From Octopus sinensis (taxonomy: Eukaryota): a stretch of 64,000 nucleotides of DNA. The stretch spans positions 3,410,001 through 3,474,000 of the forward strand of contig NC_043001.1 in NCBI RefSeq assembly GCF_006345805.1, given 5' to 3'. Positions 8,171 through 23,426 of this stretch are shown in pieces. A program made the position numbers and the translations under genes. The stretch's first letter is position 1, and every line of letters starts with the position of its first letter. Below the pieces are notes generated by a model, which saw only the letters and a program-made list of their open reading frames with translations, ran no database searches and was not told where the DNA came from.

Positions 8171-8224
8171 CGATAAATGCTGAATAATTACAAACATGAC
8201 ATTTCGGTGGCTCTCAAAAGTCTT

Positions 8225-8364
8225 CATTATTTACATTATTTACTTTATTTACATTCGACGGATATTTGTCCTCATCTTGTTTTCGGCTGATATACCCTCC
8301 AGCCTTCATCAGGTGTCTTGGGAAAATTTCGAACCAGGGTTCTCATTACTAAGGAATTTTTTGA

Positions 8365-8438
<74 letters not shown>

Positions 8439-8975
8439 TATTATTATTATTCAGGTCACTGCCTGGAATCGAACTTGGAATATTGGGGTTAGTAGCCCAT
8501 GCTCTTAACCACTACAGTGGAGGCGCAATGGCCCAGTGGTTAGGGCAGCGGACTCGCGGTCGTAGGATCGCGGTTTCGAACCCAGACTGTGCGTTGTGAG
8601 TGTTTATTGAGCGAAAACACCTAAAGCTCCACGAGGCTCCGGCAGGGGATGGTGGTGATCCCTGCTGTACTCTTTAAGCAAAACTTTCTCTCACTCTTAC
8701 TTCCTGTTTCTGTTGTACCTGTATTTCAAGGGGCCGGCCTTGTCACTCTCTGTATCACGCTGAATATCCCCGAGAACTACGTTAAGGGTGCACGTGTCTG
8801 TGGAGTGCTCAGCCACTTACACGTTAATTTCACGAGCAGGCTGTTCCGTTGATCGGATCAACCGGAACCCTCGTCGTCGTAACCGACGCAGTGCTTCCAG
8901 TAACCACTACACCATATGCCTGTGTACATAATGTAAATAATGTACATAATTCCTCATCTCTTAAATATAGAACTG
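8225..8975 (-). mobile_element. tRNA-head/(AAT)n/hammerhead element, reverse copy plus short inverted 3' tail, interrupted by a SINE
   Basis: Highly similar to 13296-13631. 8926-8973 matches the + strand 3' tail at 16051-16094. The reverse strand of 8281-8320 reads GACAC-CTGATGA-AGGCTG..CAGCC-GAAA, with the cleavage segment deleted. Confidence 0.75.
8517..8900 (+). mobile_element. Full-length tRNA-derived SINE with 11-bp target-site duplication
   Basis: A-box TGGCCCAGTGG and B-box-like GGTTTCGAACC. TAACCACTACA is duplicated at 8506-8516 and 8901-8911. Related sequence lies at 12445-12735(-), 31891-32200 and 55559-55866. Confidence 0.85.
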
Positions 8976-9489
8976 TCTCAAAAGTGTTGCTTATAAAATG
9001 ATTTATAGTTTTCACATGCGATGTGACCACATGTGATGATGGGATAGAAGATGTAAAGAGTCAGAAACGCCAGTGTTTAGTTTTTAGTTATATTCCCTGA
9101 AATGTCTCATCAAACATGAGCTTCTATGTGGTTACTCAATCTGCTAAAACTAGCAGTTGAATCTCACATGAAATATCATTCCAGTCTGAAATAAAGGAAA
9201 GGGTACATAGGACACTGTAGCCCTACAAAGTCTTAATCAATTATCAGTGAGAGAGAGACGTGGAAGTTCTGTTCAGTATGGGTGGACTTTTAAGGGTTAA
9301 TGGTGCAACCGTTGAATATTAAGAAAGCAAGTCTGGCAAGGAACCACTCAAATAATTTTTTTTATCTTTTCATCATTATTTCTATCACCACCACCACCAC
9401 CACCACCACCACCACCACCACCACCACCGTCACCGTCGTTATCATCATTATCATTTTCATTGTCTAACGTATCAAAATTTTTAATATTA

Positions 9490-12444: not shown

Positions 12445-12735
12445 TCAATTGATTCAGTCAACGAACAACCTGGTCTCGAAACTGACACGCAGCTGGCTGA
12501 GTAGACCACAGAAACACATACCTACAATGTAGATTTCAGGGAGATTCAGTGTGACACAAAATGAGACAAGGTACGCCTTTTGAATTTACAGGTACAACAC
12601 AATTTTGCCAGATGGGTGAACTGGAGCAACAAGAGGTAAAGTGTCTTGTTCAAGAACAAAATGCACCACCAGGAATCGATCTCTTGACCATATTACTCTG
12701 AGCTAAGTACCCTAACCACTAAACCACGGGCTGTC
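12445..12735 (-). mobile_element. Degenerate tRNA SINE (31891 family)
   Basis: GGCTGAGTAGACCACAG...GGGAGATTCAGTGTGACAC..GACAAGG...CCTAACCACTAAACCACG is the reverse complement of 31891-32200. Confidence 0.6.
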
Positions 12736-13343
12736 ACATGACATGAGCAACAGAAAATGAAGTGTCATGCTCAAGCAATTATAGCTTGTAGCATTCTTAC
12801 GTAGTGAAATGCTTTTTAGGAAAACAGACAAAAATTTGCTCTCAATGCTTTTACTTTTCACCCAGCAGAACATCCAAGGGTCGACAGTTAGAGACAGAAG
12901 GAAAGGAGGGGCTACACAAAAAAGTGGGGCTGCATGAAAAGGCTGCTGCTATTCATTACAGATGATTTGGCTACGAGAGCATGAAACTGAACTACAGTGA
13001 TTCAGTCAAAGACACAATGTGCCGCCTGGACCAGAAATTGAACCTCCGACCTTATGATCTTACAATGTTATTATCAGTCTGAATATTCTTGGGGCACAAT
13101 CGAGCCTGGGGAGCAAGACACTCACTACGCTTTGTCACACACAATATATCTTTCTTGTTGACACATGGTGTGTATACACCTTGATCAGCTCGCAGCGCCA
13201 CCTAACCACACTGTGAGATGCTAGCATTTCGGAGTAGCCATTTCGTCTTCGGCCTAGTGTCTGTCACTGAAGAGGAGACAACACACTCCAAAATATACAT
13301 TATTTACATTTCACAGATATTTGTCCTCATCTTGTTTGTTGTT

Positions 13344-13389
13344 GACACAACGCTTCGGCTGATATAACTTCCAGCCTTCATAAGGTGTC
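13344..13389 (-). ncRNA. Hammerhead ribozyme motif, type I minimal, core-mutated
   Basis: Minus strand GACAC-CTTATGA-AGGCTG-..-CAGCC-GAAG-C-GTT-GTGTC. Stems I and II are intact, with two core substitutions. Confidence 0.55.
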
Positions 13390-13436
13390 TTGGGAAAATT
13401 TCAAACCTGGGTTCTCATTCCTAACGTATTTTTCAA

Positions 13437-13517
<81 letters not shown>

Positions 13518-13693
13518 GTTATTATTATTATTATTGCTGTTGACGTTGTTGTTATTCAGCTCACTGCCTGGAATCGAACTTGAAATCTTGGGGTTAGTAG
13601 CGCACGCTTTTAACCACTACGCCATATGCCCAAGGGTTACTAACCCCAAGATTCCAAGTTCGATTTCAGGCAGTGAGCTGAATAATAATAATA

Positions 13694-13727
<34 letters not shown>

Positions 13728-13731
<4 letters not shown>

Positions 13732-15710
13732 CAGATTGAAAGCAGTGAAAAGTCCCGCCTAAAAATAAAACTGTTGGAAATCGAAAAATGTCTGCAACTC
13801 TCCCATGAAAAAGAAAGAGCAGACAAAGAAGCCTGGGCTATAGAAAACATAAAATCTAACCCCAGAGCTTTCTACAGGTATGTCAAAGAAACAGCTACAG
13901 TGCACTGTAGAATAGGGCCACTCCTCGAAAAGGATGGCACACTTACAGGAAAACCAATGAGGGTAAGTGAAATACTGAATGAGCAATTCAAGAGTGTTTT
14001 CACTCCACCCCTTGGGCATCTCCAAATCACCAATCCAACTGACTTTTTTACCACTGCAGATATAAAATCAGAGGCGGCGACGATAGATTACATCGATATA
14101 AAGGAAGACGATGTAACCAAGGCTATAGATGAAATGAAAACAGACTCAGCTACTGGCCCCGATGGATTCCCGGCAATCCTCCTAAAAGCATGTAAGAGAG
14201 TCCTAGCAAGACCACTGCAGTTCCTCTTTCAGAGCTTCCTTGCAGCTGGCAAACTTCCAGGAAAACTGAAGGAAGGTAAAATATGCCCCATTCATAAAGG
14301 AGGTAGCAGAGCGGAAGCCAAGAACTATAGACCTATCTCTCTGACCTCACACATCAGCAAGGTCATGGAACGAATAGTCAGAAGGAAGCTGATCACCTTC
14401 CTTGAAGAGAATGACTTGCTGCCCGACACCCAACATGGTTTCCGACCAGGGAGAAGCTGTTTAACTCAGCTCCTACAACACTATGACTGGGTGCTGAAAC
14501 GGCTGCTCAACCACTCAAATGTGGAAGTGATATATCTCGACTTTGCAAAGGCCTTTGATAAAGTCGATCATGGAATGATATGTCACAAACTGCGTGATCT
14601 CAACATAGTTGGAAAACTGGGAGAATGGCTTCATGACTTTCTGAAGGATAGAAGTCAGGTGGTAGTAGCCAATGGGGCCACCTCCATTAACACACAATAG
14701 TGAGCGGTGTTCCGCAGGGCACTGTTCTGGGACCACTACTGTTCATAATGGCCCTCTCAGACATGCCCTCAGCCACGCAGAGAGCCACGATCACAAGTTA
14801 TGCAGATGATACAAAAGTTTCACAGGCAATACAGAACCCTGAGGTCACTAAACACCTGCAATCTGAGCTGGACGAAATATACAAGTGGGCTGAAAAGAAT
14901 AGCATGCAGTTCAATGCTGGAAAGTTTCAAGCTTTATACTATCAGCATGCAAAACTGAATGCAATACCCAATGAATACACTGGACCCGGAGGGATTGCAA
15001 TCCCAGAGGCACAATCAGTGCGTGACCTGGGTATTCACATGAGTGATGACGCGACCTTTCATGTACATGTTGCTAAACTGACAATGAAATGTAGACGGCT
15101 GGCTGGATGGATTCTCAGAACCTTTAGAACAAGAGAACAAAAAACCATGATGGTCCTCTGGAAGACACTTGTCCTAAGCCACTTTGACTATTGCTCTCAG
15201 CTATGGTCACCATCCAGTGTCAAGTTGATCACAGAACTTGAGGCGATCCAACGAAGCTACACAAAGAAGATAGCCTCTATGCAGAATGTAAGCTACTGGG
15301 AAAGACTCAAGAGATTAAAATTATATCCTCTGGAGCGTAGGCGGGAAAGATATGCCATAATATACATCTGGAAGATCCTGGAGGGAAGTGTCCTGAACTT
15401 TGGCATCGAGAGTTACGCAAATGCCAGAACTGGGCGCCACTGCGTGGTGCCTAGGACTCCAAACCTGCCATCAAGATGTAGGACAAGATTCTGTGATAGC
15501 CTGGGCTTCCGAGGCCCACAGCTCTTCAATATCCTCCCGAAGAACCTGAGAGACCTGCATGGGGTGGATACAGATGTCTTTAAAATGAAGCTGGATCTCT
15601 TCCTGTCAGGTGTCCCAGATGAACCAACTTCACGGCAGGAGGGGCAGATGAGGGCAGCTGCATCGAACTCTCTCATGCACCAAATAGCAGTTGCTAGAAA
15701 GCCTCCATGA
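13728..15710 (+). pseudogene. LINE ORF2 reverse transcriptase, 5'-truncated, with a single 1-nt frameshift at ~14697
   Basis: ORFs 13390..14700 and 14700..15710 join if one A is added (CAA ATA GTG AGC GGT GTT CCG CAG = QIVSGVPQ). YADD is at 14799-14810. The first ~110 aa of the track ORF are flanking repeat, not LINE. Confidence 0.9.
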
Positions 15711-15797
15711 AGTGAAACCAAGTAGCAACACCAAATGGCGGTGCCCCAGCATGGCCACAGCTCATAAGCTGAAACTAGAATCAATCAATCAATCAAT
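13728..15797 (+). mobile_element. 5'-truncated CR1/L2-group (Jockey supergroup) LINE with (ATCA)n tail, inserted in (AAT)n
   Basis: RT motifs TGPDG, NYRPISLTS, QHGFRPGRSC, YLDFAKAFDKV, GVPQGTVLGP and YADD. C-terminal LERRRERY and FKMKLDLFL. No endonuclease or RNase H domain is present in this copy. Tail AATCAATCAATCAATCAAT at 15779-15797. Confidence 0.93.
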
Positions 15798-15816
15798 AGT
15801 AATAATAATAATAATA

Positions 15817-15851
<35 letters not shown>

Positions 15852-15954
15852 TAATAATAATAATAATAATGATAATAATAATAATAATAATGATAACAAC
15901 AACAACATCGAAAAATACCTTAGAAATGAGAACCCAGGTTCCAAATTTCCTCAA

Positions 15955-16000
15955 GACACCTGATGAAAGCTGGAGGGTATATCAGCTGAAATGTTGTGTT
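15955..16000 (+). ncRNA. Hammerhead ribozyme motif, type I minimal (PLE/retrozyme type)
   Basis: GACAC-CTGATGA-A-AGCTG-gagggtatat-CAGCT-GAAA-T-GTT-GTGTT. Canonical core, 5-bp stems I and II, and a minimal stem III (consensus of the three copies is the palindromic AACGTT). Confidence 0.7.
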
Positions 16001-16869
16001 AACAACAAGCAAGATGAGGACAAATATCCGTCAAATGTAAATAAAATAAATAATGTAAATAATGTACATAATTCCTCATCTCTTAAATATAGAATTGAAC
16101 ATTCCAAAATGTTAGCATCTCACAGTCTGGGTAGGTGACGCTGTGAGCAGATCTAGGTGTATACACACCATGTGTCAACAATCGGGATATATTCTGTGTG
16201 ACAAATCTCAGTGAGTAACTTTTGCCCCAGTTCGAACGTGCCTCATGTATATTCGGACTGATAAAACCATTGCAATTTCACTTACCACTGCTAAGCACCC
16301 CCTCCCTCTGTAACGTATGATCTTAAGTCGAACACTCTAACCACTAAGTCATCAACCTTCGCAAACCTGTAGAATATGATTATTGCATTAACAATAAGTC
16401 AAATATTTAAGTATTTAAAGAGAATTATAAATCTATATAAGAAAGCAAGGTGTTCTTCCTTGTGCCATTATCACGTTATATCTGCCCCACCCCGCCAACT
16501 CTCTCCCTTTTTCCTATTCTCCTGGTTTGGTCATATATTCTGAGATATTTTACTTTCCATTATTCAATGTTTAACAAGCTCATACGTCCAGGAGTTTACT
16601 TCATTACAACTCTCTCCAGATAGAATGCCAACGCAACCATCTCCTCGCTGGTTCCTAAACGTCCATTAGAATTCTGCGAAAGCAATAATATCTCTGTCTA
16701 AAGTCTACAAGGATTTTAAATATTGTTCTGCTGTGGAGTGGAATATCATTTATCTTTTCATCAGCCACACAAAACCTGGCAGATCATCATGACAAACAAT
16801 CTCTTTAGCTCAAGCTAGATTTCGGAAAATCGTCATTTGCATTCTTCACAGCTGCTCCTCTTGTTGTTG

Positions 16870-22142: not shown

Positions 22143-23033
22143 ACATATATATATATGTATATATACACGCTCAAATGTATATATATAATGTATATGTGAG
22201 AGTGTCTTTCTGTGTACTGGTGTGTGTGTATGCATAAGGAATCTGTACATATGTGTGTATGTGTCGTGGGGGTGATTCTCTATATACGAATATATACATA
22301 TATATATATATATACATCATCATCATCATTATCATCACCAACAACAACAATGTTTAATGTCTGTTTTATTTATTTGCCTGATTTGCAAAGTTCATTAAGA
22401 TCGGGCGTGTTGAAAATTCATCAGATTCTGATGTCTGCTTTGTGATGTTTCCATCGCTAGAAAACCTTCCTAAAGCTAACCATTTTACAGAGGGTACTGG
22501 GTGCTTTTTTTATTTGTTAGCTCCGGCGCCAGTGATATCACCTTTAAATAAATAAGACTAAAGGCTTAATATGATCCCTATAAAAGATGGAGCATAAAAG
22601 AGAAAATCGTGATGACATTAGGTAGGTGACGAGTGAGTCTAAAAACGAGTCGAACAAATCAATAGTTGTGAGCGTTGAGGGAGGTAATGGTGTAGTAACA
22701 TTGAATGCGTACGTGTAACAGGAAAGAAGAAACGGGAGGGGATTAGATTTTGGCGCTGTTGATAAAGGGAAGGAGAGTGTTGGAAGGTGGGTCGTGTAGG
22801 AGGGATTGAGGACGAATGCAGATTATGAGGGTAAACATGGAGAGAATGAGTAAGGATTCCAAACGAGGGAAGATGAAATTTCAAGGAGACCTAAGCAGGA
22901 CTTGGCAGCGAAATACCTACCTACATACTTACTTATACCTATATTTATATATATCCAAGATGTAACTACACGTGGACTGTTGGCGATTTTTTCACTCGTT
23001 TTTCCATTTCTTTTGGACTTTCCTATGTCTCCT

Positions 23034-23068
23034 GTTTCTGAAGAAGTGCTATGCTCGAAACGTAAAAC
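23034..23068 (+). ncRNA. Hammerhead ribozyme motif, type I minimal
   Basis: GTTT-CTGAAGA-A-GTGC-tat-GCTC-GAAA-C-GTA-AAAC. Canonical core, GUA cleavage triplet, and one mismatch in stem II. Confidence 0.7.
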
Positions 23069-23426
23069 AACCACTCTTTCTTTCCTTCTCTAAGCGTCTA
23101 ATTAATACTTTGCATGCACCACATCCTCGCGTTGCTGTTTTTTCCTGCTGTCTTTCTTTCCCGTTTTTTATGTATTTAGGAGTGGTTGTAATTTACGTAT
23201 AGAATTCATTTATCGATACGGATGTACATTGGGTAAATGTGTTTGAAAGTTGTGGTTTCTTTGGTTTGTTTGTTCCCTAACAACACTTTTTTTAGTGTTG
23301 TTGACACCGCCGGATTGAATGGTACTGCCGAGGTGCCGAAACCATAAGGCTATCCGTAGGGCAGCTGATGATGGAGGTATTTTGGATGGTTGGTATGACT
23401 GTGGAATAGTATTATAACACATTCTT

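Follow-up and report, generated by a model that had tools for sequence, protein, structure and literature searches.

A dispersed short repeat of Octopus sinensis, which joins a transfer RNA (tRNA)-like head, an (AAT)n tract, a hammerhead ribozyme and a tail, is almost certainly the pseudo-long terminal repeat (pLTR) of an autonomous Penelope-like element (PLE) of the Penelope/Poseidon type. Three copies lie in a 64-kb stretch of the 2.72-Gb genome (the window; NC_043001.1, positions 3,410,001-3,474,000 of the forward strand), at 8225-8924 (minus), 13296-13631 (minus) and 13634-16095 (plus), where an earlier note made from the letters of this stretch had placed them; a check of the sequence confirmed the positions as well as the common layout of A box, B box, (AAT)n, spacer and hammerhead. 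These copies can probably be seen as solo pLTRs of an element that RNA polymerase III (Pol III) would transcribe over its whole length, coding region included, from the tRNA-like head. The likely new aspect is this Pol III drive of a known class of elements.

The nature of the unit is revealed by the open reading frame (ORF) to which it is joined. This partner ORF was found from the sequence upstream of the head, where 11 loci share the end of a GIY-YIG ORF. The head stands about 29 nt past the stop codon in 27 of 30 loci with the endonuclease end (three of the 30 being one sequence), while among the remaining three it is deleted in two and retains its first 12 bases in one. The near-full copies L331 and L355 start at the head and run in the order head, tail, ORF and head, direct pLTRs flank the ORF in L331, L332, L342, L344 and L355, and in the copies found by a search with the 5' part of the ORF the tail passes directly into it. 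An ATG in the spacer opens a frame for reverse transcriptase (RT) and GIY-YIG that reads through ribozyme and tail, the order of the element being head, (AAT)n, ATG, hammerhead, tail, RT and GIY-YIG ORF, stop codon, 29 nt and head. The RT domain is matched by Pfam; the decayed endonuclease piece gave no Pfam match. Natural ORF fragments span the N- to the C-terminus of the proteins P0001 (847 amino acids, 54% identity, with 50-56% for the natural fragments) and P0007 of Anolis carolinensis (42% identity in the RT). The N-terminus of P0001 equally matches the peptide encoded across the hammerhead, at residues 18-33, a peptide recovered by motif scan in 1 of 120 homologues. A quick tree that contained no named clade references joins the element to P0001 and the Anolis protein, with a value of 100 in the Shimodaira-Hasegawa-like approximate likelihood ratio test (SH-aLRT) for the grouping with the latter, apart from four other PLEs of the genome. 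The unit is by its 3' end not a short interspersed nuclear element (SINE), because a PLE ORF begins there and the sequence is neither derived from a long interspersed nuclear element (LINE) nor poly(A).

About 110 loci of other PLE families, found via the Pfam GIY-YIG model and two other PLE proteins and presumably Neptune-like and Nematis-like, were considered as partner and rejected, as the tail is present in none of them; the real partner ORF escaped this Pfam-based search. Equally, solved structures gave no match to another PLE ORF of this genome, viral contigs no relative of the element and contigs from four RNA runs no pointer to the partner. Other retroelements often lie within the (AAT)n tract or next to it (loci L029, L200, L237, L241-L243 and window positions 13727-15796).

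Within the window, the copies (arms A, B and C) and their surroundings comprise the following features, in window positions.

8213-8221 / 8977-8985: 9-bp duplication around the arm A pair
8225..8924, minus strand: solo pLTR arm A with short 3' end, its head interrupted by another SINE
8508-8516 / 8903-8911: 9-bp duplication of the nested SINE
8517..8902, plus strand: nested tRNA-headed SINE of another family, 386 nt, within the span of copy A
8925..8976, plus strand: inverted partner of arm A with long 3' end, consisting of the ~50-nt terminal tail alone
13060..13294, no strand assigned: left part of the host element, of a second, retrozyme-like hammerhead family
13287..13294 and 16103..16110, both plus strand: left and right 8-bp target duplication of the B/C pair
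13296..13631, minus strand: solo pLTR arm B with short 3' end, complete tRNA-like head, (AAT)n and minimal hammerhead
13416-13418, minus strand: ATG of arm B, between (AAT)n and hammerhead
13570..13579, minus strand: Pol III B box of arm B
13614..13624, minus strand: Pol III A box of arm B, after the consensus quoted in an excerpt of PMC8969392
13634..16097, plus strand: arm C, inverted partner of B with long 3' end, beginning within the head, its (AAT)n split by a LINE
13727..15796, plus strand: 5'-truncated LINE in the (AAT)n of arm C, with RT, one frame break and an (AATC)n end; boundaries approximate
15926..16097, plus strand: first 57 Penelope ORF codons in arm C, spanning hammerhead and tail
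15955..16000, plus strand: minimal type I hammerhead of arm C, with core at 15960-15966, an extra A and a 5-bp stem II
15988-15991, plus strand: GAAA of arm C, with the predicted cut after 15995
16103..16290, plus strand: right part of the host element

The earlier note had described a LINE that splits copy C and, at each of the two loci, a partial arm in inverted orientation, and the sequence bears out both; the LINE is a later insertion and not the mobiliser. The A-rich tail of the same description, ~100 nt long in the unit, is present but is not poly(A), as it consists of coding 9-nt repeats. The view of the element as non-coding fails: its final ~170 nt encode the beginning of the Penelope ORF, 57 codons counted from an ATG at 15926, and the frame carries on into the ORF body in the near-full copies L331, L332 and L352. 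The ribozyme is imperfect in all three window copies: in copy A a 17-nt deletion covers the cleavage site, the hammerhead of copy B carries two core changes, and that of copy C has an intact core with a decayed palindrome. The B/C pair was inserted at the GAAA core position of the host hammerhead element.

The insertion geometry was followed in two sets, 51 loci that the list of exact matches gives in genome order and, separately, the first 60 loci chosen by similarity. The former hold 27 divergent (head-to-head) pairs and the latter 35, with no convergent pair in either, and a long and a short 3' end are combined in 19 of 20 classed pairs of the 51 loci and in 28 of 29 of the first 60. The two 3' ends are fixed and about 35-40 nt apart; 35 ends in the 51 loci fall at 142-172, 35 at 184-190 and none at 173-183, with 6 shorter ones, and the long ends run on into letters of the ORF. 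Target duplications of at least 8 bp were found in 17 of 28 pairs from the loci chosen by similarity and in 8 of 19 from those in genome order, compared with shuffled means of 0.43 and 0.23. Among 47 pairs, the more complete arm is the short-ended one in 23 and the long-ended one in 16, with 8 ties; completeness is thus not tied to one arm, and RNA must have served as template for priming on both strands. The arms of a pair have 26 derived changes in common against 8.5 expected (0 of 2,000 permutations) and differ at hammerhead position N7 in 6 of 36 pairs, so that priming would have occurred mostly on the same or a like RNA, while gene conversion could add to the sharing. Fold-back of a single cDNA as the source of the inverted arms was rejected, because the short-ended arm, the more complete one in those 23 pairs, could not have been the template of the long tail; the tail-only pairs are the sole ones that fit L1-style twin priming on non-overlapping parts. 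Head-to-tail tandems occur in 0 of the 51 loci in genome order, and a few partial tandems were seen (L026, L201 and L202), such cases being rare among loci picked for them.

These features resemble what is known of PLE insertion, for which the literature is cited here and below from excerpts. The marks of PLE insertion, an inverted 5'-truncated copy at the 5' side, an optional tail of 30-40 bp at one end only and a target duplication (10.1101/2021.04.23.441226), agree with the family. The closest parallel is PAc (Poseidon_Ac) of Anolis carolinensis, in which an ORF of RT and C-terminal GIY-YIG starts at the hammerhead as in the octopus element, two internal RT start sites define an optional tail of 30-40 nt, both target strands are cut and extended, and uncut RNA serves as the template (PMC11167929). 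In the octopus element the ATG lies 34 nt ahead of the core, so that the whole ribozyme is coding, and it has a tRNA-like head, whereas neither such a head nor a Pol III promoter is mentioned in the excerpt on PAc. We infer that P0007 is PAc itself, as the start of P0007 fits the description in that paper. The proposal that Penelope enzymes, and not those of a LINE, mobilise the repeat is thereby supported beyond its original form, the unit itself being a PLE pLTR.

A mechanism can be proposed in which Pol III starts at the head and would read the terminator-free unit into the flank. By analogy with PAc, the RNA would be bound by the protein at its ORF-start region, present near both RNA ends, and both target strands would be cut by the protein, and RT would start at two internal sites, one per strand, with one target strand using the long site and the other strand the short one, before the two cDNAs join near the 5' end of the RNA. 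The template was uncut RNA, because the copies retain both sides of the cut site. Priming at the 3' copy would give rise to truncated or full elements and priming at the 5' copy to a solo pLTR ending at the transcription start, which would explain the about 85% of heads without ORF; solo copies transcribed by Pol III may contribute to this excess as well. As an aid to the translation of an uncapped RNA, the (AAT)n leader ahead of the ATG is a guess.

Transcription by Pol III is suggested by the head itself. Its A and B boxes stand 32 nt apart and fit the consensus quoted in PMC8969392; in 60 heads both boxes match in 25, the A box in 33 and the B box in 42. Alignment of the head with real tRNA genes of the same genome gives 47-48 identities, with z about 7 against shuffles and no clear parent among the 6 amino-acid types compared. 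The 5' ends agree with such a start: among the arms that reach the start of the head 66 end at most 11 nt from it and 8 continue into the ORF end, while 39 arms begin inside the head (a count that omits 15 arms from loci chosen for close pairs). Together with the bases that precede it, the head makes up a short palindrome, which is frequently where inverted arms are joined.

A run of four T (T4) is the Pol III terminator, and transcription by this polymerase is a mark of non-coding SINEs; autonomous retroelements are, to our knowledge, read by RNA polymerase II (Pol II), or ride on RNA polymerase I as R2 does. T4 runs common to half of 30 copies are absent over 2,493 aligned columns, and nine single copies hold 0-1 T4 per 2,060 nt, at differing places. 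Four other PLE ORFs (21-25% T) contain 9-14 T4 runs, and among 80 relatives fetched the 30 T-matched ones (at least 1,400 nt, 20-25.5% T) have a median of 3.0 T4 per kb, with a single one at zero. The absence of T4 as a sign of Pol III reading is suggestive only. Taken together with the boxes and the 5' ends at the head it indirectly supports the Pol III drive already proposed in the earlier note, and a coding RNA produced by Pol III appears, on these sequence features, somewhat more plausible than its absence.

A number of observations weigh against the element as proposed. The head no longer folds as a tRNA (Rfam, ARAGORN); ARAGORN reports no tRNA in the window, and its relaxed mode gives mixed, unreliable anticodons. 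The one T4-free relative among the 30 has no head, and zero T4 has a chance of at most 0.003 under an order 0 Markov null, 0.015-0.04 under order 1 and 0.06-0.09 under order 2. Equally, T4 scarcity has p values of 0.16-0.64 in synonymous shuffles of three natural frames, and unrelated retroelements of the genome are also T4-poor (2 in 1,982 nt, 1 in 1,191 and 3 in 2,381). Of three frames, two show no depletion of Phe as protein-level avoidance of T4 (the ranks being 13, 23 and 0 of 60). Solo single arms are mostly without a clear duplication, no intact ORF was found among 30 body copies, where the longest stop-free frame has 432 codons, and no discrete sense transcript was seen. The Pol III model leaves the translation of an uncapped RNA unexplained. 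Furthermore, the promoter of Drosophila Penelope, the only PLE promoter study found in the literature, is in its excerpt LINE-like, internal and TATA-less (PMC2377424).

The same Penelope element might have its mRNA made by Pol II, from an internal or read-through promoter, with the head as a passenger or as the driver only of short RNAs that make solo copies. This alternative, which we consider rather unlikely, leaves the PLE structure unchanged, draws on the Drosophila promoter and on a T4 scarcity within chance under the higher-order nulls, and would remove the translation problem by a capped mRNA. It is opposed by the 5' end of the element, which coincides with the tRNA-like start where Pol III would begin, and by a T4 count at the bottom of the 30 T-matched relatives. 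In addition, a pair of A and B boxes occurs within 400 nt past the ORF match in 0 of the 80 relatives, many of whose contigs end soon after, so that the gain of the head and the scarcity of T4 coincide in one family.

The unit is abundant. A 39-nt stretch of the ribozyme core has 1,081 exact occurrences in the genome compared with 0 for a reversed control, which, once the probability of a copy being exact is divided out, corresponds to roughly 20,000 copies; a query with the tail gave 4,765 first-look candidates. The mean difference between a copy and the column majority is 5.7%, and the family, which occurs in six organisms, is decayed. This divergence lies close to the burst at 0.065 in the annotation of Octopus vulgaris, dated to 18 million years (PMC13282606). 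ORF-linked exact heads number 56 against 1,081 exact heads, a ratio corrected by 8/24 to about 16% ORF-linked; core stretch and heads both total 1,081, and since chromosome-level density fits both the agreement is taken as coincidence. Most intact heads (about 85%) are in fact solo pLTRs without ORF, and ORF sequence was found in 7 of the 51 loci in genome order.

Such a solo excess is what would be expected from a true SINE lineage, a short unit transcribed by Pol III that uses the Penelope protein in trans, with most copies arising from solo masters. Solo copies carry all the predicted cis signals and no T4, and as the N7 mismatch between the arms of some pairs indicates, more than one source RNA could enter one insertion. 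On the other hand, no sequence feature parts solo from ORF-linked units, whose long ends continue into the ORF, and the two commonest non-CpG variants are conservative in one case and silent in the other in the ORF frame, as read by hand. The commonest (14% of 175 copies) is tail position 64, which is N7, the one free core position of the hammerhead; it reads Asp to Glu in the ORF frame and marks a subfamily. A separate SINE lineage is improbable as the full account, and can be compatible with the Pol III-driven element.

The hammerhead belongs to the minimal type I class and, from the column majority of 77 genomic copies, to which the consensus given before is identical, lies in the pLTR. This majority has a 5-bp stem I, CUGAUGA, one extra A, a 5-bp stem II, GAAA and a GUU cut site, and a CG palindrome stands where stem III would be. 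Minimal PLE hammerheads share with it a helix I of 4-5 bp, an extra base after A9, G10.1-C11.1, the lack of helix III, a palindromic 15.2-16.2 and pairs on opposite strands 100-700 bp apart; the excerpt of that work treats single motifs as truncated PLEs and describes no Pol III head (PMC4209133). The difference in stem II between the window copies, at first read as compensatory, is accounted for by CpG decay: an A-U pair occurs in 2 of 67 copies with complete core, compared with ~2.8 expected from independent decay in a hand calculation, and stem covariation was not found among copies of the family. A core conserved above its flanks, set beforehand as a test, was not seen either (mismatches 31/757 in the core, 406/8408 in the flank, p=0.42), as would be expected if the copies were dead on arrival. 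Beyond the family, 80 relatives hold 25 distinct motifs, 19 of which retain a stem II of at least 4 bp and a stem I of at least 3 bp with unrelated letters, and only three hammerhead motifs lie on the antisense strand in 80 related elements. The predicted structure is thus backed by stems kept across related elements, not within the family. Intact copies fold to the three-way shape and gain 4 kcal/mol as dimers, with the shape attained as monomer by 2 of 4 tested, and for cleavage the hammerhead would have to be dimeric or assisted by a protein; the minimal PLE motif of PMC4209133 did not cut as monomer and cut weakly as dimer. A Rfam search of the window contained no hammerhead or tRNA among the matches listed (150 of 235), and a further Rfam scan left hammerhead and tRNA unmatched.

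The model of the earlier note, in which a non-coding SM-alpha- or retrozyme-like unit cleaves itself from multimers, circularises and is reinserted from circles, can cite the few partial tandems and the combination of Pol III boxes with a hammerhead as in SM-alpha (PMC6765202), but is largely refuted by the ORF linkage and is now very improbable, as the unit is coding, head-to-tail tandems are missing from the loci in genome order, the 5' ends lie at the head and not at the cleavage site, the ribozyme is of the minimal PLE type without stem III (PMC4209133) and no circular joint or end pile-up appears among those listed. Schistosoma SM-alpha and Sj-alpha equally place a Pol III promoter before a type I hammerhead (PMC6765202), and this design holds at the sequence level for the octopus unit; SM-alpha is, however, a non-autonomous, SINE-like and often tandem repeat (PMC6765202; PMC8490949), and its release by cleavage from tandems does not extend to the coding, dispersed, inverted unit of an autonomous element. 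Non-LTR retrozymes (PMC7761336; 10.64898/2026.07.22.740005) are hammerhead units related to PLE pLTRs with a proposed use of PLE enzymes, as here, and are now argued to be PLE derivatives. They form head-to-tail tandems and circular RNAs, are non-coding and have no tRNA head mentioned in the excerpts, whereas the ORF-linked octopus unit is coding and without tandems in the 51 loci, so that the identity as a retrozyme is not upheld. The second hammerhead family, which hosts the B/C pair, looks like a classical non-LTR retrozyme and fits retrozymes better than the unit under study: it has a ~330-nt unit with a 6-bp stem I, a 4-bp stem II and a palindromic stem III (L166-L195), head-to-tail tandems in L174, L177, L185 and L190 in addition to inverted arms, and 510 first-look candidates.

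The RNA data comprise about 6% of three runs (X21-X23) from a related organism, in libraries poorly suited to circles or cleaved ends. Reads are equal on both strands and 79% run into unlike flanks, and they neither show nor exclude a Pol III RNA. The RNA ends at the cleavage site and the circular RNA expected earlier were not recovered, as there is no pile-up of ends in these reads and, of 56 joints, the 15 that are listed include none of this kind. In a separate observation, positions 1395-1715 of locus L008 show 17-20 A>G and 10-16 T>C sites in the RNA reads, with sites 1547, 1555 and 1585 at 15-21% in RNA compared with 0, 2 and 0 of 76-77 genomic copies, and in the loose-end consensus (196 reads in each of two runs) 7 of 11 A are changed to G, as counted by eye. 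These sites likely reflect adenosine-to-inosine editing of repeats, with the RNA organism differing from the genome organism. The inverted repeats of 100-300 bp made by the family look like substrates of ADAR, in an animal group known for RNA editing.

The tRNA SINEs OK, OR1 and OR2 of octopus have reportedly been described by Ohshima and Okada in 1994, and the solo unit could be one of them. In the excerpts OR1 and OR2 are cited as CORE-SINEs; a likeness between the tail of the unit and the CORE-SINE domain was considered and dropped. The elements Cassandra, Helenus and Ajax equally carry a sequence derived from a small RNA (5S or tRNA) inside a terminal repeat, but are non-autonomous LTR elements with no downstream ORF and no ribozyme, as far as the excerpt describes them (PMC10886601). 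The literature searched listed no PLE with a tRNA-derived Pol III promoter and no hammerheads in octopus repeats, although Repbase, Dfam, SINEBase and the octopus SINE paper of 1994 may already contain the family; hammerhead and ribozyme are unmentioned in the main text of the Octopus vulgaris annotation (PMC13282606).

Other repeats accompany the element. The genome contains several PLE families whose frames stay free of stops over 775-1008 codons (L287:1637-4660, L288, L289, L290, L291 and L091). In L287 and L288 minimal hammerheads occur in both of two pLTRs, and the 3' region, a very long simple repeat, includes another frame of 705 codons. The U3-A8 core variant described in an excerpt of PMC4209133 occurs in the hammerheads of other PLE families (L068, L088, L118, L119 and L073). 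The other tRNA-headed SINE family, of ~390 nt, has pieces in the window at 8517-8902, 55558-55753, 32015-32198 and 12449-12602, a near-perfect 98-nt inverted repeat lies at 33128-33225, with similar sequence in L105, and a hammerhead-like motif of yet another family at 23030-23075.

Viewed as a whole, an autonomous element might have captured a tRNA-derived promoter within its terminal repeat, switched to Pol III, purged terminators from a 2.5-kb ORF, relied on translation of an uncapped RNA and left behind SINE-like solo repeats by the tens of thousands, a scenario for and against which the balance is even. If true, it would mean that SM-alpha-like 'ribozyme SINEs' can arise directly from a Penelope element, and would break the division between Pol II and Pol III with a natural long coding Pol III RNA. 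Whatever the polymerase, thousands of insertions test the in vitro model of PAc within a genome, by one long and one short end per pair, by either arm being complete and by a sharing of variants above chance but incomplete. Equally, what every pipeline would class as a tRNA SINE proves to be the terminal repeat of a Penelope element, and the family suggests an origin for SM-alpha-like elements.

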